In this document: piece by piece, positions 17,378 to 63,197 of the stretch
Position numbering within the stretch: position 1 is the first letter of the stretch
Layout: every line of letters begins with the position of its first letter
Source of the DNA: Botryllus schlosseri
Lineage: Eukaryota
Assembly (NCBI GenBank): GCA_051294905.1
Contig: CM119371.1
Span: 37,512,001-37,576,000 of the forward strand
Reading direction: 5' to 3'
DNA: 64,000 nucleotides
Made by a program: the position numbers and the translations under genes
Notes under the pieces: model-generated
Told to the model about the DNA's origin: nothing
Databases searched by the model: none
What the model saw: only the letters and a program-made list of their open reading frames with translations

Positions 17378-19159
17378 CCGTGAAGGTCATCTAGTCTGAT
17401 CACACCAGCATCAAACAGGTACACTTGACTCTGAACAGTCTGGCAGTAAAAAATGTTCAGTTAAAAAAGGAAAATAAAAGAAAAATTAAACGATGGTAGC
17501 AAATGATTAAAGAAGCAATGTCTGGGCGAGGTAGGGCAACAGTGTTAGTAGTATAACGACAGGAGGTGATCAAGTAGGTCTTTTTTTAATCTATTATAAG
17601 GCAATTCACGTATATGTGGTGGTAATGCATTCCGGATGATAGGTCCCGAGGATTCGATAGATCTCTTAGTTAGGTTGCTATTGGGTGGGGGTAAGTAGAT
17701 ATTTCCCTTTGACGAGGATCTCGTGTAATGGGAATGGACATTTTTAGCAGGTATGAAAAAGTCATCAAACACAGGAGGCAAACTATTGGAAAAATATTTG
17801 TGAACAACTTTTGATACTTCGAAGCGATATAGTTCATCAACTCGCAAAATTCGATGCTTACGGTAGTAAGGCGATAAATTGGTACGTAAAGGTACATATG
17901 AGATCAGCCGTATCGCACGGTTTTGCAGGGTTCGAATTCCGCACAAAAATGTTGTGCATGCATTTCCCCATACTACGATTCCATATTGCAGATGTGAGTG
18001 GAAAAGAGAGAAGTAGATGGTTCGTAGTACTGATCTGGAAACCAATGATTGGAGACGGGTCATTATTCCCACACACCGAGCTAGTTTTGATATTGTGCAT
18101 TCAATATGCTGCTACCAAGACAATTTGGAATCGATGGTGACGCCGAGATATTTTGCTGAGTCACGTATGGAGATTTGTTTATGATTGATGTTCACAGTGA
18201 AATTATGACTGGCATTATTTAAAACGAGCATCTCGGTCTTATCTGCATTCAAACTTAGTTTGTTTGCTTGCAGCCATCTCGACACTTTTGGGAGTTCCCT
18301 ATTCACAGATGCATGCAAATCATCGACAGTGTTGGAGGTTATGAAGAGGTGAGTATCATCAGCAAATAGGGTTGTGCGGAATAAAGATGCATTAACAATG
18401 TCGGTAATGTAAATGAGGAAGAAAGTCGGCCCAAGGACTGAGCCTTGTGGCACTCCACAAGTTATATCTCTGGTAGTCGATCTTAATGTCCCCAGTTTAA
18501 CAAATTGTTTGCGGTTTGCCAGGTAGCTTTCAAGTAGAGTTGCTGCAATACCCCAGATTCCATAGTGTTCTAGCTTGTATCTTAAGATTCTGTGGTTAAC
18601 TGTGTCGAAAGCTTTGCGGAGATCGATAAAAATGCTACAGCCACTTTTTTTGCTTGATGGTTTGGTAATAGTCCGTTACAATTGATAGTATTGCATGGTT
18701 GGTGTTATGGTTTGATCTGAATCCATGCTGAGTCGGAGACAGTACTGCATTCAATTCAAAAAAATTCTTGAGTCGGCAGTCAATCAGTTTCTCAAAAACC
18801 GTGGCAAGATTTGGCAAAACAGATATTGGTCGGTAGTTAGAAATTAGCTTTTTACAGCCTTTCTTAAACACTGGCATTACTCTGGCAGTTTTGAGAGCAT
18901 CTGGAAAATGCCTAGACGTATCGACTCATTAAAGAAAATGCCTGTAACATCACCAATAATATTAAAGACTAGGTTCAGTAAGTGAGTTGGGATGAGATCG
19001 GGTCCTACTGCTTTGTTACTTTTCATTTCAGATAATACGATCGCAACTTCTCCTTTACTTGTCGGCTCAAGAAAAATGGATTTCTGAGGGCCAGGACTCA
19101 AGTACGAGAGTTTATAGCATGTTTTCAAATCACTGCTTTACATTTTAACGCAACATTTG

Positions 19160-24495: not shown

Positions 24496-27400
24496 ACTCA
24501 GGTGTATATCGCGGTCATAAATCCCACGTGTCCACTTGCTACCTTCCTACCTTCCTATTTACATGCATAAATGGGATTAAAATGTTGTACTCGATTTATA
24601 CTGCGGTATAAGTCTGAGGTAGGTTCAGTTTTCCTGTGCCATGGGTGTATATTCACACCCGCATATCAGGTGTGTTCCACGGGTGGAGATACACTCTTCA
24701 CTAAGAGTGTAGATAGAACGAGAAGTATTTTAAAATCATAGCCATGTAAGTAATTCCGTCTCTACTTTGCTACTGGAGTAGGAGTAGAAGCAATGTCGCA
24801 AATTATTACACGGTTACAAAAAGAATCAGCGATTTCCAGTAAGTAAAAACTTTTCAGACCTGGTTTTCTTGAAAATCCTGGAAATTTTAAAAGGAGATAG
24901 GGATGTAGTAAAAAATGACAATAACATGAGTAAGTAGTGCAAGTACGTACTGGTGTACTTCTAAAAAGTAGAAGTCCTCCGTTACTGCGTCTGCGTGACT
25001 CAGGTTGGAAGTGTACGACGTAACATAGATTCATGATTCGTCACTAATGACGCACGAAATCAGACACCAAACATAAACAATCTACTTCACTGGATTAAAA
25101 TTGTCAACAAACGGCTTTAGATAATTCTCACAGCTTTAATCAGATGACTTTAATGACGTTCGCTCAGAGAGCTGATTATCAGGTGACCCCGTAACCTGTT
25201 CTTTCAGATTCACCATATAATCATACCTCAAGCCACATCACTCCTGACTCCTGATGAACTTACACACAGTAAGCTCTTCTTTATTGCAATAACATTTCCC
25301 CATTTTCCGATCACGGCAGACACCGAGAGATATTTCTTGTAGTTGAATATATTTAATAACGAATAAACAATGCTTTCGAAAGATGTTTTGTCATCAAAAA
25401 TATGAGTCATTAATTTCGAAAAAAATGAGAATTCATCACAACTTATTTCAAACTACAAAATAGCGTTGAAATTGATCGTCCGTGACGACGAACTGGGATA
25501 CTCATATTTGGGCAGGTAACCTGGATCCGAATTTTCAAAACATTGTACCACCTGAAAATAGTACATTGAACGCTCTCTCGTTTGAAATTTCATGCTGGTG
25601 ACGTCATATTTTGTGATGCGATTGTTGATGTACAATGTTCTTTCCAATTCTCTACTAGTTGCTGACGATTACCCCTGACAAGCGTCAGCCGAAAATATTC
25701 GGGTTTATTTCAATAGGAATATACTATTCAATTGTACATTGAAGTTCAGCACCTCCAAGGAGCTCTTCAAACATTGAAATCCGGACCGTATTCGGAAATT
25801 CCTACATTTCTTTGCTTATCACTTAGTCGCCCGATCCAAATCTTTCCAAAGTCAACAAATTTTTTTTTTTTTTTTCAAATCGAAATCCCAACTCAGATGA
25901 GATAAGCATCGATTCGAAAAAAATGGATTTGATGACCTTAGACAGATTTGTATCAGGTATGGATTCACGATCTCATTGAATCTGTAATTGGATTTGGGCT
26001 CGGATAAATTTTTTGCAGTTTTTCAATATACTTGCGACTTTCGAACAAATTTTTCTCAATGTTGAATTTGGAGATGGATTTAAACATAAGACAAGAAAAC
26101 CAAAGATTTAAAAAGTGTCTTTAGAGCTGCACAGACAAAAAGAAGCATCATCGGTATTCCAATAGCTGGCGACCCAGTGGTAAAATTTATGAAACTGGCC
26201 TTAGCGGAAAGCTACTGTTACACTGATTCTGAAGATCTAAATTAATATAAGGTCAGGGCACTGAAATTCACCCAAATATCGTTCTGAAAATCGTAAATCT
26301 GCATTGCTCCGAACAATCGGAGAGCCGCAACACAACGAACATAACAATGACTCTGCGATTGTTCGTAACTATGATGATTTCGGGCTTTGAGGGTGATCTT
26401 AGGGTCATGCCATTACCCGGGCAATTTTTAATTGATATTTTTCGAACTGGTAGGACATTAGCTTCCTATTAAAACTGGTTTTATTAACTTTTGCGCGCTG
26501 GTCGACAGCTCAAAGATTACCGTAACTGTTTAGAAAGCTATCATGCAGTAGCCAGCTAGAGCTCCCAAGAGCACTCTTTATTCAAAATGGTGGGGGAAGT
26601 TGCGTTATTTAGCGTTAGTAATAGGACGAAATAAATGTTGTATTTGAATTGGAATCGAATATTTTAGATCACAAGCCTATCTAATGTGACAGGATTTGGA
26701 TCTATAATCCGGAACTAGATTGGAATTTCAAGATATGGTATCCGCTCATCCCTGATAGGCGTGTGATCGATTCGTTGGGTATCGGTGGGATATTTCGTTA
26801 TATCAGATCCGGTGCTATCTGTCAGGCCAAAAGTCCGTAGATAAAAGTTAAAAGGACAGTCAGGTGTACATGTAGCGGCGAACTTCGTCGTCACATGCTT
26901 CGAATTGCAGTGTGTCCACATCGGTGGAATCCACGCGACCGCAGAGAGTGTCGCCGTCCGTAGCGTCAGCATCAGATATCGCCGGAGTGAAGTTGGGGGG
27001 ATCAGATGACACTGAAGAACCATCCAACGGAGCGATGAACTCGGCAGGGATGACGGCTCCCATCAATGCCGTGCCGTCTGCTCCAATCCAGAAAGTCATT
27101 CCCTCAGCACCGAGCACTTCGATCAGAGTTCTGCAACATTTCATGAGAATGTTTTAGAAGTCACTCCCTTACTGGTAGTTTAGAAAAGTATTGAAGAGCT
27201 ACTTTTAAAGTCTAGTTTAAGTCAAAATATAAAAGTTTTTAATATCTAATGTAAATTCCACTTTTATTTAAGTAGATATTACCGAAGTCGATATTGCTTC
27301 TACCTTAAATAGTTTTAACATGTCTTGGAAATGTATTTGTAAATTCTAATCCATTGGTTCTCAAACTATTTTCAGCGCGCCCCTTGACGATGTCACGCCC

Positions 27401-28999
27401 CCCTTGAAAGATGTCACGCCCCTTGTCGTCATATCAAAAATATATTGAAAAGAGTAACCAGAATGTTTGTAATCCAAACGCATTGTTTGGTGGCATGGAA
27501 AGTGTTATGGCTGTTGAGTCACTTAACAAATACGGAATTCGGACTATACTCAGAACGAAGATTATGAATATGAGCTGGAGGTAAGTCTCGCGGAGCGCAA
27601 AAAATGGTCAGTTGAATATGTTGTTGAACATAATCATGTGCAATGGTCGTAGGTTAGCACATGAATATTTTAGCGATTTTCATTTCTAATTCCTTCAGTT
27701 ACCCACTTGAGCTTCCCTCAAACGCACCCGATCGTAAGCTAAAACTAAAACCAATGGCACAGCCACAAGCATTCGTCAGGTACACTTCATTTAGGGACAT
27801 CTTCTGATTATGCAAAGTGCCACATCAGTCAAAATCTGACATCAGTGTGGGTATGGCAAGGCGCAATTATGAAATTTAAAATCGAAATATTATTATGATT
27901 ATTTTCATTTGTGAAACCTGGAAGTTTCAGCACAAATTAAACTCATTCAGAGTCCAAGAAAAAATCATTTCTCTCTGGCGGCTCTGCGCCTCCCCTCAGA
28001 TGCATTCACGAAGCCCAACGTGTCGTGCCCCCCAGTTTGGGCAACAATCTTCTAATCTAAATTTATATCTACAAATTGTAATTTCCAATCTAAATTCTAC
28101 TAATAGTCTAGTAGACGTTCGCGCAGTGTATTGGCTTCTACTTCAAGCAGTTCCGAGATATTGCGGAAATTGCTACTTGTACTTGTAACCGAGTAGAAAT
28201 TTACGGCGTTACTACGACTTCTTGCTGTATGTCAAATTTGACCAACTTTGTATATAAAAGAGTCGAGTCCTATCACTGGGGGGTTCTTGTCAGAGGTAAT
28301 GAGAACTTTTAAAACAGCCACCGCCTACGATCGACAAAAAGTGTGTGAGCAGATTTACTCTTAGAAACTACTTGCTTGGTACATCTCCAGGCCTTCATTT
28401 TTTGCTTGCAATTAAGGTGGTTTCGTCATGTTTTGGAAATTACTCCTTTCATTTGTTACATGCGTTTCAGCAATGCGGTGAGAATCACTGAAGGGAAGAA
28501 TGCAAGGAAATAAATCTCACTCTCTCTCGGCTGTTGGCGCATTGAAACCGACGACGGCGAGTCTGGCTCCTTCGGTTTCTTCGCATTTGGCCTTGGCCTC
28601 GTCCCAGTTCAGAGTATCAGCAGACAATAGGTAGTAGCAATTATCATCGCCCACTTGAGTTCAGCCGGCTAACGGGTTCTGCAGAAATCGGATAAGTGAA
28701 TTGCTAATGAATAGCAGAACCATAAATTTGTCGAAGCATTTGTTTTCCAATTTCGATTCGGTGGTGTTTCGACGCAACCTCAGCGAACATGCTTGTACAT
28801 AATAGCAAACTAATTAGTTGACTTTCAACATACTATTGGTGTATTAAGTAGTTCTACTTTTCTTTACAAATTAAAAAATTGGCTCAGGACAACTAGATAA
28901 TCCGCGTCGTCGTTTGGCGTGAATCATAATACCGGTTTCGCTGTGTGATGTTCTTGCAGCCATTGCTATATAGCTCGCATAGTCATGCAGGGTCTAAAC

Positions 29000-29543
29000 C
29001 AGGGGCGGGCAACTTCTCCGTTCGACGGGCCGGATATGGGAAAATGAAGCACCTGGCGACAAAATTACGGAATCGATACATTAATCGCGTATTTATCCAC
29101 TTAAATCAATGGTATTTATTGTAAAATTTATGTTTAAATTTTAGAGACCAAAAAGTATGAAGTTATTAACAGTAGCTGTTAAAGTCAATCATGCATCTGT
29201 GGTCGGTCAAAGTTGTCAACAAGTTCTTTGAACTCTGGCTGCATGTCTTATGTACAAACCCTGAGTAAAGACGGCATGCGCGTGAACATAAGTTATATTG
29301 TAACGCAGCCTTGTCTCGTTAATGTTCATTGTCTAAAATACATGTAGGCTACACTCGATCAGAGAATGTAGTTTCATGTCCATCTTTCTCAGGTTGGCAA
29401 ACTTGTATTAATTCTGTGACGCATAAAATTTGTCAATACTTTCAGAATATCATTTCATTTTTGAGGTAGAAACTCTCTGCGGGCCGGTCAAAATCCTTTC
29501 GCGGGCCGGATCTGACCCGCGAGCAGTATGCTGCCCGACCGTG
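29000..29543. mobile_element. Charlie-like hAT MITE in intron 4 of copy A
   Basis: CAGGGGCGGGCAAC start; TSD GTCTAAAC on both sides. Confidence 0.85.
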
Positions 29544-30308
29544 GTCTAAACACACTCCCTCTCAAACTCGATACCCTGTCCTCTTGAAATACCGGCTCTA
29601 TCTTCAATAATCAGGTATGAGTTAGTTGTGATTAGTTAGTTGGTTGTGGATATTTGAAGAGCGTCAGTTCTAGATCAGTTCAGTTCTAGTTCAAGTTCTT
29701 GTGGCGCAACTTGAAATTCAAGTAGTTTGCACAATTGCACACGACAGAATTTCAGTTCACCAGATTCAAGTTTTTATGAATCACGCTCCTTTTCGAGCAG
29801 ACATTGTCCGTAAACAGTAGTGATTTGCAGCATTTAACTGCGTTACGTTTAGTAACACCATAACAATCGCAGTCATACTCCAGAAAAACGTCGTATGTTA
29901 AACGCCACAGTTATCCATTCTTCCTCGGCATTAGTGCATTACTAAATTCCAAAATCCTTGATATAAGAATTATAGCCCAGCCGATGTCAGTAGTTTGATA
30001 GAACCGAAAATTAACGCCTTGAACGACAACCTCGATATATTCAACAGAAATGGGATCTAGTCTAAGGCAAGTGTCTAAACGCATCTATTTCAAAGGTTTG
30101 ACATCCTTTGTGATGTTTGGGCATGAACTAAACTGGAATGTTTGGTCAGGCTATATTATTAATGTTATGATGATAAATTTGTCATTATATGAGACACAGA
30201 ACTTTCGTGGCGTATCGCAACATTTACGGTTTTTTTGCTCTTCCTGAAGCAGTTAGAGATTTCACAGTCAGTTTCACAATCTGACTGTAAGTGTTAGTAT
30301 GGCCATAG

Positions 30309-30868
30309 CAGGGTTGTAATGACTCGAGTCACGATGTTTTTGGTGAATCGACTTGACTCGTGTCATTTTCTCAAAACGGAGAAAATGACTCGACTCTACT
30401 TGATTCTGTGTATTGACTCGACTTGCACTCGAGTCATTGCGCACGACTCGGACCAAGTCATATGACTCGAGACTCCGACGACTAAGACCGACATTTCATT
30501 GTAATTTCGAAGAATAGGAAAGTTACCCAACTATTGGTATTTTATTTATTAGTACTGGTACTAGATAATGCGACCAGAAACCGGTAAAAGTTAGGAAAAT
30601 TAGTGTATTATAAATGTGGAGCATTATACACCACCAAGCAGAGTTAATAAACGTGGGCTTTATAAGAATTTAACTCGACACTGCACAGTGAACACAATGA
30701 CTTGAACTCGGACTCGAGTCATAACACGATGACTCAGACTCGACCGTCTTCTCGCCGACTTGGACACAGACTTGACTCGGTGGGGAATTGAAAATGACTT
30801 GAGTCAAAACTATAAAATCGGGATTGACTTGTGACTCGGAACCTTGTGGATTGCTGGTTACAACCCTT
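30309..30868. mobile_element. Same MITE family, in intron 4 of copy A
   Basis: TIR CAGGGTTGTAA; TSD GGCCATAG/GCCCATAG; absent from copy B (about 56237). Confidence 0.85.
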
Positions 30869-31294
30869 GCCCATAGGAGGTCACGGACCGGCATAGTAAG
30901 TCAAAGAGTCGATAGACGAGCTATGAAGATAGTCTCACTGCAGTGGTCGTGCCTGGGGCCATTGTAGTCGTTGCTGCTGTTGTAGTCGTGGTCCTTGTCA
31001 TCGACACTGAAAAAAAGACATCAGAAAATCGTTCGTAGGTAAAAATCTGAAATAGCACATCTGCGTGAGAATGAATGAAGGAAACATTAAACTAGAGCCC
31101 GACCGATTTATCGGTTCGACGTTAATATCGAGTCGATAACACATTTGGACAAAAAAATCGGTATCGGTAATTTGATTTGAAAATATACAGCCAAATTTTC
31201 GTGACGTCACAGCAGGGTAATAGGCAATCACACAGCCATAATGTGAGACTCCTCGACTGCATGTGAATATTAATATGTTTCATATACCTTACAT

Positions 31295-32053
31295 CAGGGA
31301 TGGCCAACCTTTTTGCCATTCACGGCCGCATTTCGACTACACATGTAGCCTACGCCCGCAATCCTTGGCATAGTCCTAATAAACTAGCTGGACGCCAAAT
31401 ACCCATGTTAGAGTGTCTCTGTCCATTTCTGGTGAACTCCGGACTAATCGATTTAATCATACAGGCTTGCTATACGCACCGAAATCGCGAGTGGTCACTG
31501 GCCATGTTATGGGTATGTACATTTTCGCGCGAAGCGCTAAAATTTCCTCAGATTAACTAATGAATTTCGTGAATAATATTAGTAGTTTTTCAGATTACTA
31601 ATAAACATTTATCCTTTCTCAGCCCATGGATGTGATCAGATTCACTGGTAGAGTTGATGAAGGGGGTGTTTTCGAAAATTTAGGGCGAGTTATAAATGAT
31701 GATGCATCTTCGGGTGGGCCAATCGTTATTGGTCACTTTGTTGCATGCTGGTATTTCTTGAGCTCCCATCAGGATTGTCGGTATAGTGAGGAGTACACGA
31801 TTCAAAATTGGTATTTTTACATGGGGCCCATCAATTTCCTCTGCTGTTCGAATCTGTAATGTGGGGCTCTGATTGCAAATGGCCCTACTACATTAAAATC
31901 GAATAATGAAGTCACATTGAATCGCGCCAAGCGCGAACAAAATTTCAAGGTTTAATAAAATATATCAAGAAATCTGGAGTCAATACGTAAATTCAAATTA
32001 CATGTCCACGGCCGCACAAATTTCCTTTTACGGTCACTGGTTGGCCACCCCTG
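31295..32053. mobile_element. Charlie-like hAT MITE in intron 3 of copy A
   Basis: TIR CAGGG(A/G)TGGCCAACC; TSD CCTTACAT; related copy at 58232-58854. Confidence 0.85.
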
Positions 32054-32958
32054 CCTTACATGCAGAGGAGGTCAAAGTAGTCTTGGTTGGTAGTCAAGTA
32101 TAAGTAGAAGTGAGGGCGGAGATCAGATAATTGGATTATTGACAGAGTCGATTTAACAATCCAGGATTAAGGAAACGCATTTTCATCTTATGATTTGACA
32201 AACCGGAACAAACAATAACTTGCTATCTAATAAAAACTGCGTACACTGCGTATCATTCCTATGCGCAAATATTTCCGATAATGACCGTGACGATTGTTTC
32301 CTAGAGAAGTGGTTCTCAAACTAGGGGCGCGCTCCCTCTTGGGGGGCGTAAAGCGTCTGAAAGGGGGCATATATCTGCGGTTAACTGAAATTTTTTTGTC
32401 GTGCGCTGGGTGATTTACCTCCAGTTCATAGTTGTTGCTCTAAGTATATTCCGAATCTAAAATTTAGGAATTGTCTTATCAACAGTCATAACATTCCATG
32501 TCATCAAACTATCCGTTGTATTGCTAGCATTCAGGTTGCATTTTGTTATATGACGATAGGGGGCGTGCGAAATTTTTCAATATCATAAAGGGGGCGTGTC
32601 AAAATAGCTTGAGAACCACTGCCTTATACAGCTAATGGCTTCACCAAACAATCAGACAATGAACGATGCGCCAATTAGGTGAAAAGTAAGTATTATAATT
32701 AAGTGAACTTATCACTGTTAAGTGACAATAGTCAAAACCATAAACACCTGTGTAAGTAGTGTACAGTAAGTAGGCAGGCAAATCCGACTACTTGATTTGA
32801 AGTACTTCCTTACTGACCACTTACAGGTGTCCAAATACAGTCTTTGCAGTGTCATTCATGTCAAAGCATAGCAATGGTCGAAAAACCGTTCGAACGGATG
32901 CTCTGGGGTTTTCGAAATACGATTAAGCTGGATGCCATTATTTAAATATCGTCTAAAT

Positions 32959-33318
32959 CAGTGATTCCCAACCTTTTTCGACTCATCGTCCCCTTTTCGA
33001 GCTCCACATCATTCATCGCCGCTAAATATTGGGAACCGAAAAATGGGCATTCAAACTGTAATCACCGGCGAGTTGACTAAAAAATAAGTCAACTTCCCGA
33101 CTCCACCTCGAAATTATACTTTTACAACTCCGACTTGACTCCAATATAGCCGTTTAACCCGCATTCGCCCCCCTATCGCCCCTTCGATATTTTCGCCCGT
33201 TATCGCCCCCTTCGTCCGTTTTCGCCCCCTATCGCCCCTTCGTTATTTTCGATCCCTATCGCCCCTTCTTTATTTTCGACCCCCTAGACTGCCAAATCGC
33301 CCACGTAGGGAACCACTG
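32959..33318. mobile_element. hAT-like MITE with internal ATCGCCCCC tandem array
   Basis: CAGTGATTCCCA...GGGAACCACTG; TSD GTCTAAAT/GTTAAAAT. Confidence 0.7.
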
Positions 33319-34421
33319 GTTAAAATATATCGGGGTTTACCGTGACGGTGTTGGTTATCGATTTTATCGGTATCGTTACAAAAATCCTATATCGAACGTA
33401 CTAAATGTGCGTTGATACTCACTGAATAGGGCGATGAATAGAAGGGGGTCGTCGAAGATGCTGTCTCGTTTAGGTTTGACGGCAGGTCCATGATAAACGG
33501 GCAAATGTTGTACGATGGGTTGTTGGTAGATTGGCTGAGGTTGGACCACAGGTGGATAATGGATGGGCTGATGAGGTTGGACCATGGGTACATGTTGGCT
33601 GGGCTGGTGATATTGGGCCATGGGTACATGTCCGTATTCGTGAGAATCTTCATACATCATCTATAAAAGAGGGAAATTTATTTAAAAGGCTTGGAGTCGA
33701 TAGCTGGCAAGGATGTGGTCTCGATTTGAAAACCAGGAAAAATGGCGGACGCAAATGCTCGCGACTTTCTGACAAAATAGTGAATTGACTCACATGGTGC
33801 GCCATCGGTTCTCTGTTTTCGGCCTCTGTTTAAATCGAAATCAGATGCGATTGATTCATGAAACATATTGCAGAATACTCACCTCCAGAAGCATAGACGA
33901 CGTAAGCGAAAATCGCGAAGCAAAGAATTGCGATCTTCATTTCGAATCTACAAGCTATGAAATACAGAATGCAAGAACACGGAGGTGAACAGTTAGCCGT
34001 CTTGAGCTATTTTAACACCATCATCCATGAATTACTTCATGTGACGTGGTTAAACTTATTGATAACAATGATATTTTGAGTGGCGGCCCTTTCTTCTGCA
34101 TTTGTGTATTTAATTCAACGGGAATGGCGAGAATGTAATCCGATATCAATTGCTGTAATTTATCATGCCCGTGTGGTGTCAAAATAACCTTCTCATCAAG
34201 GTCCTCCATAATTTGTCCTGGTGTAATATCACAATGTGGTTTGCTTTCCTCCGAGCCAACTCCCGGTGTAATATCACGAGAAGTTCAGCTTCTTTTCGAT
34301 TACATTGGACTACTGCTGCTGCCAATAGAGTTATCATCCATATCTACCTACAGTAACTCATAAATGATATTCTCAGTCAGTAATTACCAATCGATTTTTT
34401 CCAATTTAATAATATCTAGAT

Positions 34422-51777: not shown

Positions 51778-53696
51778 ATAGAAACTAACAACGTCGCACA
51801 CACTATTTCATTAACTCCATATTCGTTCACCTCCATAAATCAAGTTTCTTGACTTGACTCCATTCGAAATGTACGATGACTCGATAAGAGCTGGGGCTGA
51901 AAGGTCCTGGCACTTGGGTTGGTACTCAAGTATAGAAGTATACAGATAACGTGGTAACTTTTCGATCAATAGGAAATACCGATTTCAGGGTGATTAAGAA
52001 TCATTCTCTCGATCTAGACCTAAGTTTCGTCAGAAATCCTGAAAGGGATGCACGAGTAAATGGTGCAACCTCGTACTGGTATACTACTAGCAGTAGAAGT
52101 ACCCCGTTACTGCTTGATTCTGGTCGGAGGTCTACGATGTAATATATATACATGATTAGCCGCTTTTGACGCACAGAATCAGACACAAAATAAATACAAC
52201 ATACTTCAATGGAATAAAATAAATTGTCAACACACGGCTTTAGATCATTCTGGCAGCTGTAATCAGACGACTTTCACGACGTTACGCCGAAGAGCTTATT
52301 ACTTGGTGGCCCCGTAACGTGTTCTTTCAGATCCAATACAAAATTATAACTCAACCTTTCACATCTTTTCCCGACGCCAGATGAACTCACGCACGGGAAT
52401 AACTTCTTCATTTCAAGAACATTTCCCTATCTGCTGATCACGTCACACACTGATATATATTTTTGTATAGTTGGATATATTTTATAACGAATATACAATG
52501 CTTTCGAAATATGTTTTGTCATCACAAATATGAGTCATGAATTTCGAAAGAGAAGAAAATTCATCACAAATGATTTCAAACTATGCAATCGTGTCAAACT
52601 GATCGTCCGCGACGTTGAGCGGTGTTACACTTATTTGAACAGGTGACTGTATACCGATTTTATCCAGACCGAATTAGGAAGTTTCTACATTTCTTTGAGT
52701 GTTCCCTCGTCACCCGATCCAAATCCTTCCACACTCATCAAATCAGTTTTTTTTCCAAATCGAAATCTCAACTCAGATGACATGAGCATGGATTTGAAAA
52801 AATGATTTGTTGACCATAGCTGGATTTGTATCGGGTATGGATTTACGACTGATTAGACGTTGAAATTGCATTTGAACCCGAATATAAAATTTCTGAAGCT
52901 TTTCAATTTTCATGCGATCGTTGAATAAATTTCACTCAATGTTGGATTCGGAGTTGTAGAGCCAAACCAGCATATTGGTTATCCCATAACTGGCGAACCG
53001 AGCGCTAAATTTAATGAAACTGGTCTTTATCAAAAGTTATTGTTGCACTGAGTGGAATATATATATTAAAATAAGGCCAAGGCACTAAAACCCGTCCAGA
53101 TGTCGTTTTAAAATTCCTAAATCTGCATTACTCCGAACAATCAGAGCGCCACAGCACAACGACCATAATAATGACGCTGCGATTGTTCTGAAAATTTACA
53201 ATTTCTGTCTTTGATGGTATTTTCAGGGTAATTGCATAGCCGAGCGATTTTTAATTTATATTTTCCAAACCAGAGAGACAAAAGCTTTCGGTTGAGACCG
53301 GTTTTATTACCTTTTGCGTTCTTGTCGTCTGATATAAGATTGCCGTATCTGTTTGGGAACCTACTAGTGGCCAGAAATAGCGCAAAAGAACACTGTTGTT
53401 GAAAGTGACGACTGGGGGGGGGGATGGGGGGCTTTAGCTAGCGTTAGAAACAAGACGAAATAAATGTGGATTGGGGTTTATTTTTTCGATCACAAGCCTA
53501 TGCCGGATGTGACACGAGTTGGAGCTATAACCAAGAACAGAATTTTGATATCAAAATAATATATCCACTCAACCATAGTGGTCGTGTGATTGACTTATTT
53601 AGTTTCGGAGGGATATTTAGTTATATCAAATCTGGTGCTATCCGGCAGGCCATATCTTCTTCTGTTCCAATTAAAACGGCGGTCACGAGATCTGAG

Positions 53697-56600
53697 TTAA
53701 ATGCAAATTTCGCATATGTAGCGGCGGTCCTCGGTGCCGCAGGCTTCGAATTGCAGGAGGTCCACGTTGGTGGCATCCACGCGACCGCAAACCGGATCAC
53801 CGGCAGCACTAGTGTCAGATATCGCCGTACCGAAGCCGGGGGTAGTAGCGGCTGTCGCATCGACGCCATCCAACGGAGCGATGAACACGGCAGGGTTGGC
53901 GGTTAGCGGCATTCCAGTAAGTACCGTACCGTCCACTCCAATCCAGAAAGTCGTTCCCTCAGCACCGAGCACTTCGATCAGAGCTCTGCAACATTTCAGG
54001 AACAGGTCTTGGAAATTGCTTCTTATATTGGTAGTTTAGAAAGTCATTGAAAAGCTATTCCTAAATTCTAGTCTAAGTCAAAATTTAAATGTTTCCAATT
54101 TCTAATGCAAGTTCTACATTCAGTCAAGTAGAAAAATTATTGCAGTCGATTTTGCTTGTACTGGAGGTAGTTCCAACATGTGTTGGAAATTGATTTCCTA
54201 ATTTTAATCTGAATTATAGTTCCACATCCTAATCTAAATGTCTACCTCACAAAATTTCAATTTCATTTCATTCATTCAAAATTTACCGATAGTCAAGTAG
54301 ATGCTCACGGAGTCGATTTCATTCTACTTTGAGTAGCTTTGGAATGTCTGTGAAATGTATTTCTAAATTCTAATCTAAATGTAAATCTGAAAAATAATAA
54401 TTTTCAATCCAAATTCTACCGATAGTCAAGTAGATGTTTACGGATTCGATTTTCTTCTATACTTAAAGTAGTTCTGAGATGTCTCTGACATTGCTACCTG
54501 CACTTGTAACTGAGCAGAAATTTACGGCGGTTTTTGTGCTTGTACTCGAACTAGCTTTGGCATGTCTTCGAAAGTGCTTCTCACTATAATTGAGCAGAAA
54601 ATCATGGGGTCAATTCTGCTTCTAATTGAAGTCGTTTTGACATGTCTTAAAAATCTCTACTTGTAGCTCTAATGGAGAAGAACTCTACGGCGGTATTTCC
54701 ACTTCTAGTTTTATGTCAAATCTGACCAACAATAAACGCCGACCCACCGCTAAAAGTGTGCAACCACATTTACTCTTAAAAACTACTTGCTTGGGTTCTC
54801 TCCAGACCTCCATATTTTACCTCCACTTGAAGTGGTTGGAACATGTTTTTGAAATTACTCCCTCCAATTGTTATATACGTCCAAGCAGTTCTGTGAGAAC
54901 CACTCAAGGGGAAATTGCAAGGAAATAAATCTTACTCTCTCTCGGCAGTAGGCGCATTGAAGCCAATGACTGCGAGTCCGGCATTTTCAGTTTCTTCGCA
55001 TTTGGCCTTGGCCTCGTTCCAGTTCAGAGTATCCGTGGACAATTTGTAGTAGCAATTGTCATCGCCCACTTGAGTATAGCCTGCTAACGGGTTCTGAAGA
55101 AATCGGATCGGTGAATTGTCGAAGAAGAGGAGAACGATAAATTTGTCGAAGCAATTGTTTACCGGTTTCGATTCGGCAGTGTTTCGACACAACCTCAACG
55201 AAAATATTTGTACCCACTACCAAACTAATTAGTTAATGTTCAACTAACTACTGGTTTTTCGAGTAGCTCTTCTTCTCCTTGCACATTAAAAATAGTCGCA
55301 CGACAACAATTAGAAAACCCGCTTCGACGTGAATCACGATACCGGTTCAGTTGCGTAATGTTCTTGAAGCCATTGCCATTGCTCAGCCTCACAGTTATCA
55401 ATTCTAACAGTCACATGGCCATGGCGGGTCAAAATCCAATCCATGTTAAACACGATACCCCGTCCGTTTGAAATGCAGATACTATCTCTAATACTTCTTG
55501 GCTGATTTTTAATTTAGTAATTCGTATTATCAGGTATTAGGTAGCTGTGTTTAGTTAGTTAGTAGTGGATTTTTGAAGGTCGTTAGTTCTAGTTCTTGTG
55601 GCGAGTTTTGAAAAGTTCGCAGTTGTAGTTACTCATTTTGAAAATCCATTAGTTTATACAACTGCACACGACCGAATTTTAATTCACCGGAAGGAAGTTT
55701 TTATGAATCGTGCTCCTTTTCGAACATGCATTGTCCGTTAACAGTAGTGACTTGCAACTTTTAATTTAATTTCGTGACTCATCAGCGGTGATGCAACAAC
55801 AATCTTCCTCATCTTGCCAAAAAATGACATATATTACGCGCCAGTTTTTCTTCTTCCACATTAGTGAATTACTAAATTCCCAAAGCCTTGGTATAACACT
55901 TATAGTCAGACCGGTATGAGATGTTTGAGCCAAACTGATAATTAACAACTTGAAGAACAACAACCTCGATATATTAAAATAAAACAGGGATCTAGCTTGA
56001 GGCACGTTTGTAAAAGCATTTATTTGAAAGGTTTGGCATCCTTTGTGATGTTTAGGCATGAACTGAACCAGAATGTTCTGTCCGGTCAATATAATAATAT
56101 TCTCATGGTAAATTTGGTCTTATATACAACATAGAACTTTCGTGGCGTATCGCAACATTGACAGTTTTATTGCTCTACCCAAAGAAGTTTGAGAGTTCAC
56201 AATGACTTTCACGATCAGTCTGTAAGTGTTAATGTGTCCATAAAAGGTCCCTGCCCGGCCCGGTAAATCAAAGAGTCGATTGACGATGTATGAAGATAAT
56301 CTTACTGCAGTTGTTGTTCCTGGTGCCAGTGTTGTCGTTGCTGCTGTTGTGGTAGTGGTCCTTGTCATCGACACTTAAACAAAGACATCAGAAATCGCTC
56401 CGATGTAAAAATATGAAATAGCTCGTATTCGTGCGATTAAATGAAAGGAACATTAAACTAATTAAACTAGGGCCCGACCGATTAAAGGTGCGCCGATAAT
56501 ATCGAGTCGATGTCTCACTTTGACAGAAAAGTGACTTGAGGTAAAAAATAAAGATCGCCAAATTTTCGTGACGTCACACCATGGTAATATAATATGTAAC

Positions 56601-57675
56601 TGCTTCTCCGAGATTATTGATATATTTCATATACCTTTCAGGCTGAGATGGTCAAATTATTCACCATTGATATTCCAGTACCAATTGAAGTAACAGCGCA
56701 AATTTCTATTCAAGTACGAGTAGTTTTAGACATTTTAAGTAGCAAAGAATAAGTATTATAGCCCTAGTAAACTGATGCCAATTAAGTAGAAGTAGACGAA
56801 AACATAGCAACTTGTGTAAGTAGCTAACAATAAGTAGGCTACATCCGACTACTTGATTTGGAGTACTTTCTCACTGACCCCTAACAGGTGTCCCGATACA
56901 GTCTATGTTGTGCATTTCATGCCAAAGCATAGCAATGTCTGCAAAACTGTTAAAATAGATGCTCTGAGGTTCTGGAGATTGTGATTAGGCCGGATGCTAT
57001 TGTTGAATTATCGTCCTAATATATTGGGGTTATCGGCAAAGTTGCCAATTATAGGTTTTTATCGGTATCGGCACAAAAATCCGACATCAATCGGGCTGGC
57101 TCTACATTAAACGTGCCTAAATATGCATTCCCACTCACTCAATAGGACGATAAGAAGAAGAGGATTGTCTAAGAGGCCGCCTTGTTTAGGTTCGGGGGCA
57201 GGTCCATAATAAACGGGTGAATGCTGTACGATGGGTTGTTGGTAGATTGGCTGAGGTTGAACCATAGGTGAATGATAGATGGGCTGCTGATGTTGGACAA
57301 TGGGTACATGTTGGCTGGGCTGTTGGTGTGGGACCATGGGTACATGTTGGCTATGCGGTGGAACCATGCGTTCATTCCCGTATTCATGTTGACTTTCATA
57401 CATCATCTGGAAAAGGTAAAAGGATTGGAGTTGTAAGCTTGCAAGTATAGCCTATGTGGCTTCGTTTATAAAACCAGAAAAAATAGCGAACGCAAATCAT
57501 CGCGTCCGAATATAGTGAATTGACTCACGTGCTTTGCAACAGATTCACTACTGTCGATTTCTGTTAAAATCGGAATGAGATACGAGTGTTTCATGGAATA
57601 TATTGCAGAATACTAACCTTCAGAAGCATAGACGACGTAGACGTAAATCACGAGGCATAAAATTGGAATCCTCAT
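53697..57675 (-). CDS. Secreted C-type lectin-domain protein with N-terminal Pro/Gln/His-rich repeats and Thr-rich stalk (copy B, intact, 6 exons, about 290 aa)
   Basis: Exons 57675-57618 (MRIPILCLVIYVYVVYASE, signal-peptide-like), 57560-57529, 57406-57139 (PQH repeats, LLDNPLLLIVLL), 56373-56306 (Thr-rich), 55093-54936 (NCYY..W..A...C), 53985-53697 (FWIG..C..C..YICE). All introns are GT-AG with compatible phases (1,0,1,0,2); total 873 nt, open frame. Copy A has the same exon structure. Confidence 0.85.
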
Positions 57676-57795
57676 TTTGAATCTGCACTCTACGGACTAG
57701 AGATTGCAAGAATACAGATATGATCACTTATTGGTCTTGAGCTATTTTAACAGTGATCTACGGACAGAATATAACATGGGATATTTGTACAGATT

Positions 57796-58135
57796 GACCG
57801 AGAAGATAGCGTAATGGTGAAGCGTCCGGCTTCGTGATCGGTAGGTCGTGGGTTCGATTTCCGGCCGGGTCAGACCAAGGACCTGATTAGAAACACTGGT
57901 ATCCATGACTTCCCTGCTTGGCGCTCATGTATTACTAGGATAGCATGGAGGGGTGGGGCATGACTTAGAAAGCCGTAAAGGTTATATCTGCACTTCCTTG
58001 TCCAGCGGCGTATGCGCATCATGCACTCATGATATGCACACATGGTGTGCACAGATCGTGTGTATGTGTATCATGAGTCGGTGCATATGCCGCAAAAAAC
58101 ATTGAGGACAAAAATAATCTACGTCCTTTTCTTTC
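57796..58135 (+). mobile_element. tRNA-derived SINE family 2
   Basis: TAGCGTAATGG...GGTTCGATTTCC then GGGTCAGACCAAGGAC...TGGTATCCATGACTTCCCTGCTTGGCGCTC. The head is also present at 6291-6394 on the minus strand. Confidence 0.75.
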
Positions 58136-58231
58136 CTACGATATTCCCCAGTTGCCACCCGTCAGAAGTTTGAATGGTTGGGCACTGGCTAAGAGTTATT
58201 ACTATACGGTTAAGAAACGTGTCCTCCAGAT

Positions 58232-58854
58232 CAGGGGTGACCATGGTTTGCAGTCTTATTGCTATTCATGGCCGCATTACGATCATATATGCAACCTATA
58301 CGGCCGCATTCCAGAGCATAGCCGTAATGAACTAACTGGACGCCAAATTCCCAGAATAAATTGTCCATGTCCATTTGCTATGAGCTCCAGACTAATCTAC
58401 TTGTTCATATCGGTTTATCATATGCATCGCAATCGCGAGTGGTCGCGTTACGATTAGTTACCGGGATTCCTTATGGTGGCGCCGCCATATTACTATTAAA
58501 TATATATCCTTTCTCAGCCCATGTGATAAGATTCAACCAAATTACTTTCCTAAGGAGCACACGATTCCAAGTTGGTATTTTTATATGGGGTGTATAATTT
58601 TAATCTGCTGTTTGCACCTGTACTGTGGGGCTCAGATGGAAAAGGGTGCTACTACATTAAAATCGAAATATGAGGTCGCATTGAATCACGGAAATCGCCA
58701 AGGAAATATCAAGATTACTAAAAATGTCTCAAAATTCCAGCAGTCCATTCGTATATTCAATTTCCATGTCGACGGCCTTCCACACATACCAACTGAATTA
58801 CACGTCCACGACCGCGCAAAATTTCGTACTACGACCGCGGGTTGCCAACCCCTG
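58232..58854. mobile_element. Charlie-like MITE related to 31295-32053
   Basis: Internal homology (AACTAxCTGGACGCCAAAT, CCTTTCTCAGCCCATG); CAGGGGT...ACCCCTG ends. Confidence 0.7.
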
Positions 58855-58882: not shown

Positions 58883-59017
58883 TGTAGTGGTAGCTCTATG
58901 GCGCCACTAGGGTGTGACGACATCGCAGGTGCTTCGGTGCTTGGTCGTCACTGAATACATGGCTGCTTGAGAACTCACGTCTCGTATATTAGACAGACCG
59001 TCAGTCACGTTACTACA
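58883..59017 (+). repeat. 5' LTR
   Basis: Reads identical to 63063-63197; TG...CA termini. Confidence 0.95.
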
Positions 59018-59070
59018 TGGTGGCAACAGTATAAAAGCAGCTGATAGCAATTACTTAGCTACTCAGAATT

Positions 59071-62000
59071 ATGGCTAGTGGATATACTGCCTTGCAAGGA
59101 CTGCACCCGAAGCCACTATCACTGGCTGGAACCAACCCGCCTCAAGCGTGGGTTGATTGGAAGGAAGACTTTGAAACGTATCTCTGTGCTGCAGAATTAT
59201 CACAAAAGGATGACTGCGTCAAGGTAGGACACCTCCTGAGTCTTATTGGTCCGGAGGGAAAGTCAATTTACAAGAATCTCACGTGGCTTCCTGCTCGACG
59301 AGAAAATGATCAAGACATTCCTGCTGAGGATAAAAATGACTACAAACTAGTCATTGAGAAATTTGATGCAGTCACAAAAAAACCTCCACTAAAAACAGGA
59401 TCTACTGCTCGACAGAAGGATGGAAAGGATGCCAAGACGTCGCTGATAAAATGCAAATACTGTGGTAAGAAGCACCAGTTTGGTAGATTTTTCTGTCCTG
59501 CTGCCGATTACAATTGCTCGGTGTGTGAGAAAACAGGACATTTCGAAACTGTCTGCCGTGCTTCTGCTCGGACAAATATACGCTCCGTGGAATCCGATAC
59601 TGTTGGTGAAGACGATGTGGACGGACGCTCAAGTCCCATCGCACCAGTCTTTGTGGGATCCGTGATTGCTGCTGTAGATTTGGATAGTGCTCCCAATACC
59701 GATACAGTTAACATGGAGCCTGAAATCCCACACCAGGGGCTGACCATTAGCACGGTGGAACCAGCGGAAGATATTGGCTGGTTTGTCAAGCTCAAGGTTG
59801 CCCTTGACCTGCTTACATGGTGCGTTGATACTGGCGCACAAGTATCAGTCATGCCCTTGCACATATACAAGCGTCAATATGGATCCATCAGACCCTCCGA
59901 CAAACGTTTGATGACTGCAGGGAATAAGGAACTTTCCACCCTTTGCTATGTCGCTATGACGCTCGGGTTTGAGGATAACTCCGTTGTGGAAAAGGTCTAC
60001 GTTGTCCGGGATACGCCTAAACTACTCTTGGGTATCCCAGGGGCATTCAAAATCGGACTCCTGCAAGATGTGCCGGGTACAGTTAGCATCCGTGCAGTAG
60101 ACTGTGCAGTAACTCCCTCGCTTCGGTCTAAGGAAGAGGTCATGAAAGCTTACCCTGAACTCTTTCAAGGAGTTGGAAAAATGAAAGGACAGTACTATAT
60201 CAAACTGAAGGCGAATGCTAAACCATTTACCCTGAAAGTACCTCGCAGAGTTCCCATTCCTTTGCTTGGTAGTTTGACTGCTGAGCTAAATAAATTGCAA
60301 AAGGCGGACATAATTGAGCCTGTCAACGAGCCAACAGACTGGTGCGCACCGATCGTTGTGGTACCAAAGAAAAACTCTGAAATACGCCTGTGTGTGGATC
60401 TAACGAAACTAAATGATTCTGTTGATAGGGAACTCTACCCTATGCCGACAGTTGAGAGCACCCTGGGGAAGATTGCCGAAGGAACTGTTTACACCAAACT
60501 GGATGCAAATAGTGGATTTTATCAAATAGAACTTGAACCGGAGTGTCGTAAGTTAACTACATTCATCACCCCTGATGGGAGGTTCAGATTCAAGAGGCTT
60601 CCATACGGTATCGCCAGCGCACCCGAAGTCTACCAACGGAAAATGAATCAGGTGCTTGCTGGCATCCCCAATGTGATATGTCACATGGATGACATCATAA
60701 TTGCTAGCTCACCACAGGATTACAATACCACCCTCGGACTTGTACTGGATAGACTCCGAGATGAGGGAATTACATTGAATAAAGACAAATGTGTCTTTTC
60801 AGCGACTAAACTGGAATACCTTGGACATGTTGTTGGTAAAGATGGCATCGGCAAGGATCCTAAAAAGGTTGAGGCGATTGCCAAGTTCTATGCTCCCTCA
60901 GACGTCCCGGAACTGAGAAGGTTTCTGGGAATGACCAATCAACTCATGAAATTCTCACCCAACCTGGCTGAGCTTACAAAGCCTCTGAGGGATCTACTGA
61001 AGAAAAACACTTCGTGGCTCTGGGGTGCTGAACAACAGCTGGCCTTCGACCAGGTTAAGGCAGAGCTGTCCTCGGATGTGACTCTTGCTATGTACAGCCC
61101 GGATAAGGAAACTGTTATCTCTGCCGACTCCAGCAGTTATGGACTTGGAGCTGTGCTGATGCAACGTCAGGTAGACAACTCTCTACGCCCTGTCGCTTAT
61201 GCTAGCAGATCGCTGACTGAGACAGAGAGACGATACGCTCAAATCGAGAAGGAGGCCCTTGCTATAACGTGGTCTATGGAGAGATGGAAGGAACTCCTGA
61301 TCGGCTTGCATCAACTTCGCGTGGAGACTGATCACCAACCATTAGTTCCACTTTTGTCAACAAAGACTCTTGATGAGCTTCCGCTCAGAGTGCAACGATT
61401 TCGAATGCGGCTGATGAAGTTCAACTTCACCATATCTCATGTTCCGGGGAAACTGCTATATACCGCTGACGCATTGTCTCGTTGTCCGTTGCCAACTTTC
61501 GAGGACGTTGATGGCCTTCATAATGAGACAGAAGCCTATGTCAATGCCGTCACATCCAGCCTTCCTGCGTCTTGTAAACGGTTGGATGAAATTCGCTCAG
61601 AGCTCCAGAAAGATGACGTATTGCGCACAGTGATGCAATATGTATCCTCAGGGTGGCTGAAATGCAAAGAGACGCTGCATGGCCCACTTAGGCCATATTG
61701 GAATGATAGAGCCTGTTTATCTACTTATGAAGGACTCCTGCTTAAAGGGAATCGCTTGGTGATCCCCTGTACGCTGAGACAAGACGTTTTAAGATACCTT
61801 CATGATGCTCACCAAGGGGTGACAAAATCCCGACTCAATGCATCACAGTCATGCTGGTGTCCTGGAATTTCTAAGGACATTGAAGAAACCGTCAGAAATT
61901 GCGAAAAGTGCACGGAGCATCAGCGAGAAAAGGTTGAACCGATGCTGTCAGCATCCTTCCCAGAGAGACCCTGGTCCCGTGTTGGTGCCGACTTCTTTCA

Positions 62001-62877
62001 ATATCAAAATTCCATGTACCTGCTAGCCGTTGACTACTACTCCAGGGACATTGAGATTTGCATAGTCTCCAAAACAGTTAACGCAGCAGAGACGATTCTG
62101 AAATTCAAGAAGATTTTCAGTAGGCATGGCATCTGCGAGACTTTGGTCACCGATGGAGCACCTATGTTCTCTTCCCGCGACTTTGCGTCATTTTGCGAAA
62201 GCTGGAAAATTGAACATATCATGTCCTCACCTAGATATCCACAGGGGAACTCGGAGGCTGAGCGTGCCGTTCAGACCATCAAAAACCTCCTGCGAAAATG
62301 TGACGATGAATATCTGGCGCTACTCACATACCGCAACACGCCATTGGCTATCAGCTACTCGCCAGCAGAATTGAGCATGGGCCGCAAACTAAGAACAAGA
62401 GTACCGTGTCATCCAGACGATCTTCTGCCCAAGTCTGTCGACCGAACCGCCGTGAAGAAAGCTGAAGCAGATTACCGACGCAGAGTTACTCGTGATTACA
62501 ACAAAAGACACAGAGTAGTACCTGGAGATGAGTTCAAGGTGGGAGATCGCGTCTGGATTCCGGACTGCAAATCGCAAGGTGTTGTGGAAAAACTTGACAC
62601 TGACACTCAACCCAGATCGTTGGTTATCAGAACTGGGCGTGGCACCTTCAGAAGAAATCGCCGAATGGTGCGGAGATACCAGACGGAGAATGCCCCGCAA
62701 GAAGGCGTCGACATTACCGCCAGTGAGGAAGCTGATTTCTTCAAATTTCCCGATCAGGGAGGAGATAGCAGTTCGAGCGCTACTAGTGTCGATCGTGATG
62801 ACCATCATGTGGCGGCGATAGTCCGACGGTCGGATCGGAACAGAACCGCACCTCGCAGATACATCGAGGAGTACTGA
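59071..62877 (+). CDS. Gag-Pol polyprotein (Gag N-terminus, double Zn knuckle, protease, RT, RNase H, integrase)
   Basis: 1268-aa ORF with CKYCGKKH...CPA...CSVCEKTGHFETVC, VDTGA, RT LDANSGFYQI and HMDD, RNase H ADSSSYGLGAVL...EKEAL, integrase HHCC and D,D,E. Order PR-RT-RH-IN indicates Gypsy. Confidence 0.95.
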   Translation: MASGYTALQGLHPKPLSLAGTNPPQAWVDWKEDFETYLCAAELSQKDDCVKVGHLLSLIGPEGKSIYKNLTWLPARRENDQDIPAEDKNDYKLVIEKFDAVTKKPPLKTGSTARQKDGKDAKTSLIKCKYCGKKHQFGRFFCPAADYNCSVCEKTGHFETVCRASARTNIRSVESDTVGEDDVDGRSSPIAPVFVGSVIAAVDLDSAPNTDTVNMEPEIPHQGLTISTVEPAEDIGWFVKLKVALDLLTWCVDTGAQVSVMPLHIYKRQYGSIRPSDKRLMTAGNKELSTLCYVAMTLGFEDNSVVEKVYVVRDTPKLLLGIPGAFKIGLLQDVPGTVSIRAVDCAVTPSLRSKEEVMKAYPELFQGVGKMKGQYYIKLKANAKPFTLKVPRRVPIPLLGSLTAELNKLQKADIIEPVNEPTDWCAPIVVVPKKNSEIRLCVDLTKLNDSVDRELYPMPTVESTLGKIAEGTVYTKLDANSGFYQIELEPECRKLTTFITPDGRFRFKRLPYGIASAPEVYQRKMNQVLAGIPNVICHMDDIIIASSPQDYNTTLGLVLDRLRDEGITLNKDKCVFSATKLEYLGHVVGKDGIGKDPKKVEAIAKFYAPSDVPELRRFLGMTNQLMKFSPNLAELTKPLRDLLKKNTSWLWGAEQQLAFDQVKAELSSDVTLAMYSPDKETVISADSSSYGLGAVLMQRQVDNSLRPVAYASRSLTETERRYAQIEKEALAITWSMERWKELLIGLHQLRVETDHQPLVPLLSTKTLDELPLRVQRFRMRLMKFNFTISHVPGKLLYTADALSRCPLPTFEDVDGLHNETEAYVNAVTSSLPASCKRLDEIRSELQKDDVLRTVMQYVSSGWLKCKETLHGPLRPYWNDRACLSTYEGLLLKGNRLVIPCTLRQDVLRYLHDAHQGVTKSRLNASQSCWCPGISKDIEETVRNCEKCTEHQREKVEPMLSASFPERPWSRVGADFFQYQNSMYLLAVDYYSRDIEICIVSKTVNAAETILKFKKIFSRHGICETLVTDGAPMFSSRDFASFCESWKIEHIMSSPRYPQGNSEAERAVQTIKNLLRKCDDEYLALLTYRNTPLAISYSPAELSMGRKLRTRVPCHPDDLLPKSVDRTAVKKAEADYRRRVTRDYNKRHRVVPGDEFKVGDRVWIPDCKSQGVVEKLDTDTQPRSLVIRTGRGTFRRNRRMVRRYQTENAPQEGVDITASEEADFFKFPDQGGDSSSSATSVDRDDHHVAAIVRRSDRNRTAPRRYIEEY

Positions 62878-63062
62878 TGTAGTTATAGGAGTAGTGTGTG
62901 TAAATATGTTGTGTTCTTCATTCACCTCTTGCCTGCCAATTGCTTCGTACCTTTGTACCGCTAACTGCCTCAATTCGGATTGTTTATTGTCTTCATTCTG
63001 TGCTTGCGTTGTATATGTTTGTGCTGCTTATAAGCATTTGTGCTTGTCCCCGAGAAGGGAGA

Positions 63063-63197
63063 TGTAGTGGTAGCTCTATGGCGCCACTAGGGTGTGACGA
63101 CATCGCAGGTGCTTCGGTGCTTGGTCGTCACTGAATACATGGCTGCTTGAGAACTCACGTCTCGTATATTAGACAGACCGTCAGTCACGTTACTACA
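63063..63197 (+). repeat. 3' LTR
   Basis: Reads identical to 58883-59017; preceded by a polypurine tract. Confidence 0.95.

Follow-up and report, generated by a model that had tools for sequence, protein, structure and literature searches.

The spicule matrix proteins of sea urchins, grouped into the SM50 family (SM50, SM37, SM32, SM29 and PM27) and the SM30 family, are secreted and combine one C-type lectin-like domain (CTLD) with disordered proline-rich repeats. These repeats are described as lying either N- or C-terminal to the CTLD, and SM50 is given as the most abundant spicule protein (PMC2909932). [quoted passage not shown] The SCPPs, which include amelogenin, are described as derivatives of sparc-L in jawed vertebrates (PMC9122587). 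Among tunicates, the Oikosins of the Oikopleura house are extracellular-matrix proteins, several of which have C-lectin domains, and these are suggested to make contact with the scaffold of cellulose (PMC3390340). Here we report a gene of related design in the ascidian Botryllus schlosseri. It lies on the minus strand at 53697..57675 of the window, the whole 64-kb stretch of DNA analysed (assembly GCA_051294905.1, contig CM119371.1, positions 37,512,001 to 37,576,000), and is predicted to encode a secreted protein in which repeats rich in Pro, Gln and His (P/Q/H) precede an acidic CTLD. This gene is termed copy A, and a paralog in the same window copy B. With a probability of roughly 0.45, we take copy A for a gene confined to an ascidian lineage, whose secreted product belongs to mucus or to an extracellular matrix without mineral and comes from a restricted cell type or stage. 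We read its design as convergent on SM50 and PM27, outside the SM50 and SCPP families.

The copy A gene was confirmed as real. Six minus-strand exons joined at five GT..AG introns (phases 1, 0, 1, 0, 2) gave a spliced frame open over 290 codons, corresponding to a product of 290 residues. Not one of 200,000 random six-piece chains matched in exon lengths remained open, a rough null that ignores the freedom of the search. The coding part of exon 1 (57618..57675, 81% identical to copy B) encodes a signal peptide at residues 1-19 with a 14-residue apolar run, and by the -3/-1 rule cleavage is predicted near Ala17/Ser18. Exon 2 (57529..57560) is a micro-exon of 32 nt for the acidic N-terminus of the mature protein, with S-x-E sites at residues 18 and 23 (18 and 36 in copy B). 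Exon 3 (57139..57406) holds four P/Q/H/V/Y-rich repeats of 11-12 residues and ends in a short hydrophobic motif. A Thr-rich stalk is encoded by exon 4 (56306..56373), the best conserved exon between the copies. The CTLD begins in exon 5 (54936..55093; beta1, alpha1, Cys156, Cys174) and is completed by the coding part of exon 6 (53697..53985; WIG at Trp209, Cys261, Cys277, Cys286, Cys289, stop codon). Downstream, a probable 3' untranslated region (53015..53696, minus strand) carries poly(A) hexamers at 53482, 53308, 53255 and 53015. A first-pass annotation of this DNA had proposed a signal peptide, repeats such as QPIYHSPMVQP and QPIYQQPIVQH, a hydrophobic motif, a Thr-rich stalk and an acidic CTLD, and all of these are contained in the open six-exon model.

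The same annotation had held that the micro-exon is needed to keep the frame and is present in both copies, and this was borne out. Its omission led to an immediate stop in the frame of copy A, and no alternative acceptor of exon 3 kept the frame. Of the micro-exon candidates that do keep it, five in copy A and nine in copy B, only the one of 32 nt combines a CAG acceptor rich in pyrimidines with a GTGAGT donor, and the two copies have these sites at corresponding places. An AG acceptor 7 nt upstream of the ATG is likewise conserved in both copies (about 57683 and 33948, minus strand); it may mark an upstream non-coding exon or a spliced-leader (trans-splice) acceptor.

Copy B (26860..33940, minus strand) lies 24 kb from copy A on a duplicated segment, about 24925-34017, which is 70-80% identical to 52051-57752. 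Its six exons (33940-33883, 33825-33794, 33660-33423, 31006-30939, 28678-28521 and 27130-26860, minus strand) have the same phases as those of copy A. The frame is interrupted by an in-frame TGA at codon 138, early in exon 5, five codons past the stalk and 140 nt before the last junction, and the diverged C-terminus ends ahead of the fourth CTLD cysteine. Copy B is a probable pseudogene. A local tblastn search found no third copy within the window. To speak of a family, as the first-pass annotation did, overstates one intact and one broken copy for which no outside member was found.

Comparison of the two copies gave a ratio of non-synonymous to synonymous substitution rates (dN/dS) of 0.45 over 271 codons (p=1e-5). 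The ratio was lowest in exon 4, at 0.05 with seven synonymous changes and one non-synonymous change (p=5e-4), followed by 0.20 in exon 5 and 0.57 in exon 6 (p=0.05), with 0.43 for the CTLD together. The stalk and the CTLD are under purifying selection between the copies, and these low ratios confirm their reading frame. Neither the repeat exon (0.72) nor the signal exon (0.75) gave a significant value, the former as expected for a low-complexity arm. The micro-exon behaved differently from its surroundings: 17 of 32 positions were identical between the copies (57529-57560 and 33794-33825) versus 65 of 75 in the flanking intron (p=4e-4). This suggests either that selection has diversified the mature N-terminus or that an unseen third copy was the source of a conversion.

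Four RNA runs (X2, X4, X8 and X11) were aligned to positions 51800-58850 at 88% likeness. X4 (12.9 million records) and X8 are bulk runs and X2 is a single-cell run, while X11 had zero reads in the region and provided no test. RNA was present on the exons at low depth in two of the four runs. In X4, six of the seven exon-bearing bins were covered, at depths from 0.17 to 4.0, with 4.0 in the main exon-3 bin and 1.6 in the bin of the signal exon and micro-exon; in the exon-4 bin a repeat confounds the signal. Seven of the ten intron-only bins were at zero and one at 0.03; the other two, at 1.4 and 2.4, were covered in X8 too and are probably repeats. All 11 X4 reads at 57299 in exon 3 (nine starts) share one allelic change, Ile66Met, and all ten at 53169, beyond the stop in the probable 3' untranslated region, share another. 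We calculate for X4 a level of about 1-6 reads per kb per million. X2 showed a depth of 2.2 on the exon-6 bin in a single orientation, which, judged by the capped reads of a short interspersed element (SINE) in the same run, would be the sense of the gene. Transcription was shown at a low level, and the joining of exon 3 to exons 5-6 is predicted by the gene model. That expression is low and varies with the study suggests that the gene is active in a restricted cell type or stage.

In exon 3, the four repeats stand back to back with lengths of 12, 12, 11 and 11 residues, and Pro, Gln and His make up 56% of their 59-residue core. Over residues 31-105 the composition is 20% Pro, 19% Gln, 11% His, 11% Val and 8% Tyr, and Tandem Repeats Finder (TRF) returned a 36-nt period in both copies. 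A structure prediction of the exon 3 product, based on a single sequence (predicted template modelling score, pTM, 0.16), gave coil and one terminal helix. The apolar run at 113-123 comprises 11 residues and is preceded by Asp, Asn and Pro. Its 19-residue hydropathy reaches 1.35 in copy A and 1.12 in copy B, and a rough insertion energy was positive in all windows. The run is too short for a membrane anchor as judged from these values, and because of this the protein is predicted to be released. The motif may resemble one in the mollusc nacre protein MRNP34. The stalk that follows contains 12 Thr in 23 residues.

The order of these segments, namely a tail, an apolar motif, a stalk and a CTLD, would also agree with a type II membrane receptor similar to CD94. 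Translation would then start at Met codons of exon 3, which opens with two ATG codons, the repeats would become a cytoplasmic tail with Tyr residues, and the apolar motif, with basic residues before it, would be the anchor. This is very improbable given the 11-residue length, low hydropathy and positive insertion energy of the run; moreover, the signal-peptide exon and the micro-exon are retained in both copies and are covered in X4. The ascidian proteins BsCD94-1 and CiCD94-1 are described as type II membrane proteins (PMC5465252), whereas copy A has a predicted cleavable signal peptide and no segment of membrane length.

The C-terminal domain of copy A spans 148 residues and is acidic (isoelectric point, pI, 4.05; 22 acidic versus 7 basic residues). 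Its cysteines and motifs follow the order Cys156, Cys174, Trp209-Ile-Gly, a 48-residue loop, Cys261, Cys277, Cys286 and Cys289. The four core cysteines of a CTLD (C1-C4 and C2-C3; here Cys174, Cys261, Cys277 and Cys286) and a WIGL-type motif are present in order, and copy B is without C4. The customary N-terminal partner of Cys156 is missing and Cys289 is additional, standing after the last core cysteine; the two may form a third disulfide that links the first and last strands. The long loop (213-260) contains 9 Ala, 8 Thr, 6 Gly, 5 Asp and 5 Pro among its 48 residues, in line with the Ala/Thr/Asp-rich loop noted earlier. EPN, QPD, WND and W-x-D are all absent from both copies, which agrees with the first-pass annotation for the first three, and Leu-Gln-Phe stands before C3 in the position of WND, the strand motif of calcium-dependent carbohydrate-recognition domains. 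EPN and QPD are described as the loop motifs of calcium-dependent C-type lectins (PMC514892). With EPN, QPD and WND missing, the canonical calcium site is therefore judged to be gone.

Searches with exon 5 against PDB sequences listed CTLD proteins in 14 of 18 rows at E values up to 1, and a profile of both copies did so in 14 of 15 rows, with a weak best E value of 0.021. Exon 6 gave no CTLD row against the same sequences. In the ESM Atlas, 24 of the 30 exon 6 matches fell in Lectin_C sets, with a top score of 0.93 and 155 of 256 features shared, a level seen for a distant relative or a chance match. The products of exons 5 and 6 were predicted to co-fold at 0.60 versus 0.02 for the best control; the runs had 84% of their contacts in common, and the predicted local distance difference test (pLDDT) of the partners was at least 69. 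This is a weak pass that resemblance to solved CTLDs may explain. The mark applied was attained by 51 of 78 solved pairs and by 2 of 108 pairs that were mismatched, but only 5 of the 78 solved pairs attained it with a score of 0.60 or below, as did all 4 mismatches that passed. Together with the motifs, these matches to single-exon queries are weak but point one way, to a putative CTLD. Two other candidates were rejected. On exon 5, the Pfam family PF16404 (E 0.02) stayed under its cut-off, and the PRDM9 zinc-finger rows (E 1e-4) obtained with the final 39 residues were sums of weak repeats in which the His ligands are missing.

Loss of the canonical motifs is by itself compatible with non-canonical glycan binding or an immune role, as for CiCD94-1. 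Copy A could accordingly encode a secreted recognition protein that acts in immunity, in the defence of mucosa or in the interaction of gametes, with a CTLD that binds a protein or an unusual glycan independently of the canonical calcium site and an arm and apolar motif that multimerise it in the manner of the collagen stalk of collectins. We regard this as unlikely, although it is the first of the alternatives. The tandem duplication with one dead copy, the micro-exon that diverges faster than the introns and the low expression in whole samples all speak for it. CiCD94-1, an ascidian protein whose CTLD is described as having no carbohydrate-binding capacity, acts in immunity (PMC5465252), and a blood-cell cluster of Botrylloides is reported to be marked by CLEC genes (PMC12212465). 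On the other hand, the dN/dS of the CTLD, taken over the whole domain, shows no sign of diversifying selection, arms of P/Q/H repeats are a typical feature of structural proteins, and known ascidian immune lectins were unmatched in the PDB and protein searches.

Relatives were sought with single exons as queries, which limits sensitivity. Longer proteins were sought by word-seeded searches from exon 6, exon 3 and an exon-5 alignment, and none was found among 328, 9 and 1184 candidates, respectively. When 1.84 billion proteins were scanned in full by HMMER with exon 3, two matched, of 2107 and 192 residues, and both proved to be low-complexity repeat matches without the remaining architecture; a 17-residue match to a metagenome locus lies in bacterial DNA and was attributed to chance. 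Exon 3 had no match at 0.9 or above in the ESM Atlas. A full-length match to a characterised family, which the first-pass annotation had named as a refutation, was not found in the single-exon searches. A literature search by title and abstract start, with most subscription papers and supplements outside its reach, found no ascidian protein that joins P/Q/H repeats to a CTLD, and no paper in the literature searched combined the terms 'ascidian', 'amelogenin' and 'C-type lectin'. What is new is a secreted protein of a known kind of design, a CTLD with a low-complexity arm, for which no database relative was found.

Within that kind of design, copy A differs from the spicule matrix proteins in several respects. 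Its repeats are P/Q/H/V units of 11-12 residues and not the Pro-X-Y triads or MAQPG repeats of the SM families; the repeats come first and the CTLD is acidic, whereas in SM50 the CTLD comes first and the family is alkaline. The apolar motif and Thr-rich stalk are extra in comparison with SM50 and SM30, and the host is a tunicate and not an echinoderm. No CTLD likeness to SM50 or SM30 was found in the low-sensitivity word-seeded single-exon searches. Amelogenin, rich in Pro, Gln and His, invites a similar comparison. In amelogenin and the P/Q-rich SCPPs, too, a signal exon is described as followed by a small exon with S-x-E and then by a P/Q-rich exon; their introns are given as mostly of phase 0 (PMC9122587), unlike the phases of copy A. 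Unlike the SCPPs, copy A ends in a folded CTLD, and no sequence match to amelogenin or the SCPPs was found in the searches with exon 3. The likeness to amelogenin is compositional only, as the first-pass annotation had stated.

Both comparisons raise the question of a biomineral matrix protein that would template or inhibit calcium carbonate or another mineral similar to SM50, PM27 or amelogenin. The two modules agree with those of the SM proteins, whose repeats are described on either side of the CTLD (PMC2909932), the CTLD is acidic and S-x-E sites are present. Spicules are reported from the tunics of some ascidians (PMC5465252). Against these points stand the low expression of copy A in comparison with the abundant SM50, the lack of similarity to SM proteins in our searches, and intron phases unlike those of SCPP genes. 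The host is, moreover, a botryllid, and botryllids are not known to make calcareous spicules or a calcareous skeleton. We consider a biomineral role decidedly improbable. Of the first-pass annotation, the secreted protein with a P/Q/H-rich disordered arm, a non-canonical CTLD and an SM50-like design stands, while its mineral-matrix role, like its family status, is not supported.

Tunicate proteins offer two further comparisons. The Oikosins named in the accessible text of the house study are large and multidomain (fibrillin-like, VWD), and a form with P/Q/H repeats and a single CTLD is not among them (PMC3390340). The TC14 lectins of Polyandrocarpa, a styelid ascidian, are likewise secreted single-CTLD proteins in small paralog sets, but TC14 is described as a calcium-dependent, galactose-binding protein of 145 residues with neither repeat arm nor stalk (PMC3293724), whereas copy A has 290 residues and no canonical motifs. 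The PDB searches returned no TC14 row at E values up to 10. The last strands of copy A and TC14 may resemble each other.

A structural or adhesive role is plausible and the most likely reading of the copy A product, judged from its predicted architecture. The signal peptide would direct the protein into the secretory path and be cleaved, with possible phosphorylation at the S-x-E sites. Self-association into a gel or fibre would be driven by the disordered P/Q/H/V/Y arm together with the short apolar helix, and the conserved stalk would serve as an O-glycosylated spacer that presents the CTLD. The calcium-independent CTLD would bind another matrix protein or a polysaccharide. Such a protein might work in the tunic or cuticle, in a larval or ampullar adhesive, in the egg coat or in feeding mucus, in the way of the hydrogel-forming SM50-type proteins, by convergence and without mineral. 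Copy B would be a recently disabled duplicate.

Several observations weigh against a matrix or mucus protein of this description. No relative was found in the databases searched, and hence there is no function to borrow. Pfam, including the Lectin_C family proposed as a check by the first-pass annotation, gave no match on the six single-exon pieces or the exon-6 pair; an AlphaFold model of exon 6 alone was unusable (pLDDT 39.9) and Foldseek returned nothing for it. The RNA depth, with a peak of 11 reads in X4, is unlike that of a protein forming the bulk of the matrix in the material sampled, and the bulk run X8 was without reads on exons 1-3, 5 and 6. Birth-and-death duplication and a fast-changing mature N-terminus fit recognition proteins equally. 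Of the five junctions, which the first-pass annotation had wished to see in RNA, none was among the joints listed (15 of 22, with three reads needed per joint). In X4, depth was 0.17 in the exon-5 bin and zero in the bin that holds the initial 62 nt of exon 6.

The junction and depth values, set against the 4.0 of exon 3, would suit a main product limited to the N-terminal part (signal peptide, repeats, apolar motif and stalk), with the CTLD exons seldom or never joined, or joined in a minor isoform. The stop of copy B so soon after its stalk would suit it as well. That stop, however, lies at a distance from the last junction that would make its transcript a likely decay target. Furthermore, the two copies agree in all five intron phases, exons 5-6 lack both a start and a signal peptide of their own, read-through of the exon-3 donor is not conserved between the copies, and X4 and X2 reads lie on exon 6 and downstream. 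We therefore hold a product without the CTLD to be improbable, and retain the full-length secreted matrix or mucus protein as the preferred reading.

The window (GC content 0.375-0.475 in 2-kb bins) holds further features. A tRNA-like SINE at 57803-58130 (plus strand) lies about 130 nt upstream of the copy A ATG, with a partial second copy at 6295-6389 (minus strand). The SINE family is heavily transcribed, at bin depths of about 300-3200 in three runs, and a template-switch oligo joined at 57803 marks a discrete 5' end. It had no match in Rfam (57600-58400, one chance row) or ARAGORN. About 1.2 kb upstream of copy A lies a young long terminal repeat (LTR) retrotransposon (58883-63197, plus strand) with identical 135-bp LTRs, TG..CA ends, a 5-bp target duplication and a single frame of 1272 codons (59059-62877). 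Elsewhere, a large inverted duplication (9872-13650) has arms of about 1.8 kb that are 78-84% identical and hold 198-bp tandem units, and two adjoining frames at 17545-18675 (minus strand) resemble, by eye, pieces of a non-LTR reverse transcriptase. A short repeat at 52480-52572 had a one-sided depth of 182 in X2 and a lower one in X4, from reads of copies elsewhere in the genome.

The matrix and glue proteins of ascidians are poorly catalogued, and the copy A gene is a new candidate that matches nothing in the databases searched. If its product self-assembles, it would test whether a disordered repeat joined to a CTLD is a general recipe for extracellular gels or an adaptation to mineral. Should it instead be a recognition protein of blood cells or mucosa, it would add another divergent protein to a superfamily that is already very large, and its interest would be modest. 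A bolder and rather doubtful possibility is that copy A, with its signal exon, S-x-E micro-exon, P/Q/H repeat exon and CTLD head, represents a third, unrelated deuterostome origin of the gel-forming design seen in SM50 and amelogenin, this time in the sister group of vertebrates, and is used in a non-mineral structure such as tunic cuticle or glue or serves to restrain mineral there. If true, it would show that this design is of use in soft matrices ahead of mineral or in its absence.

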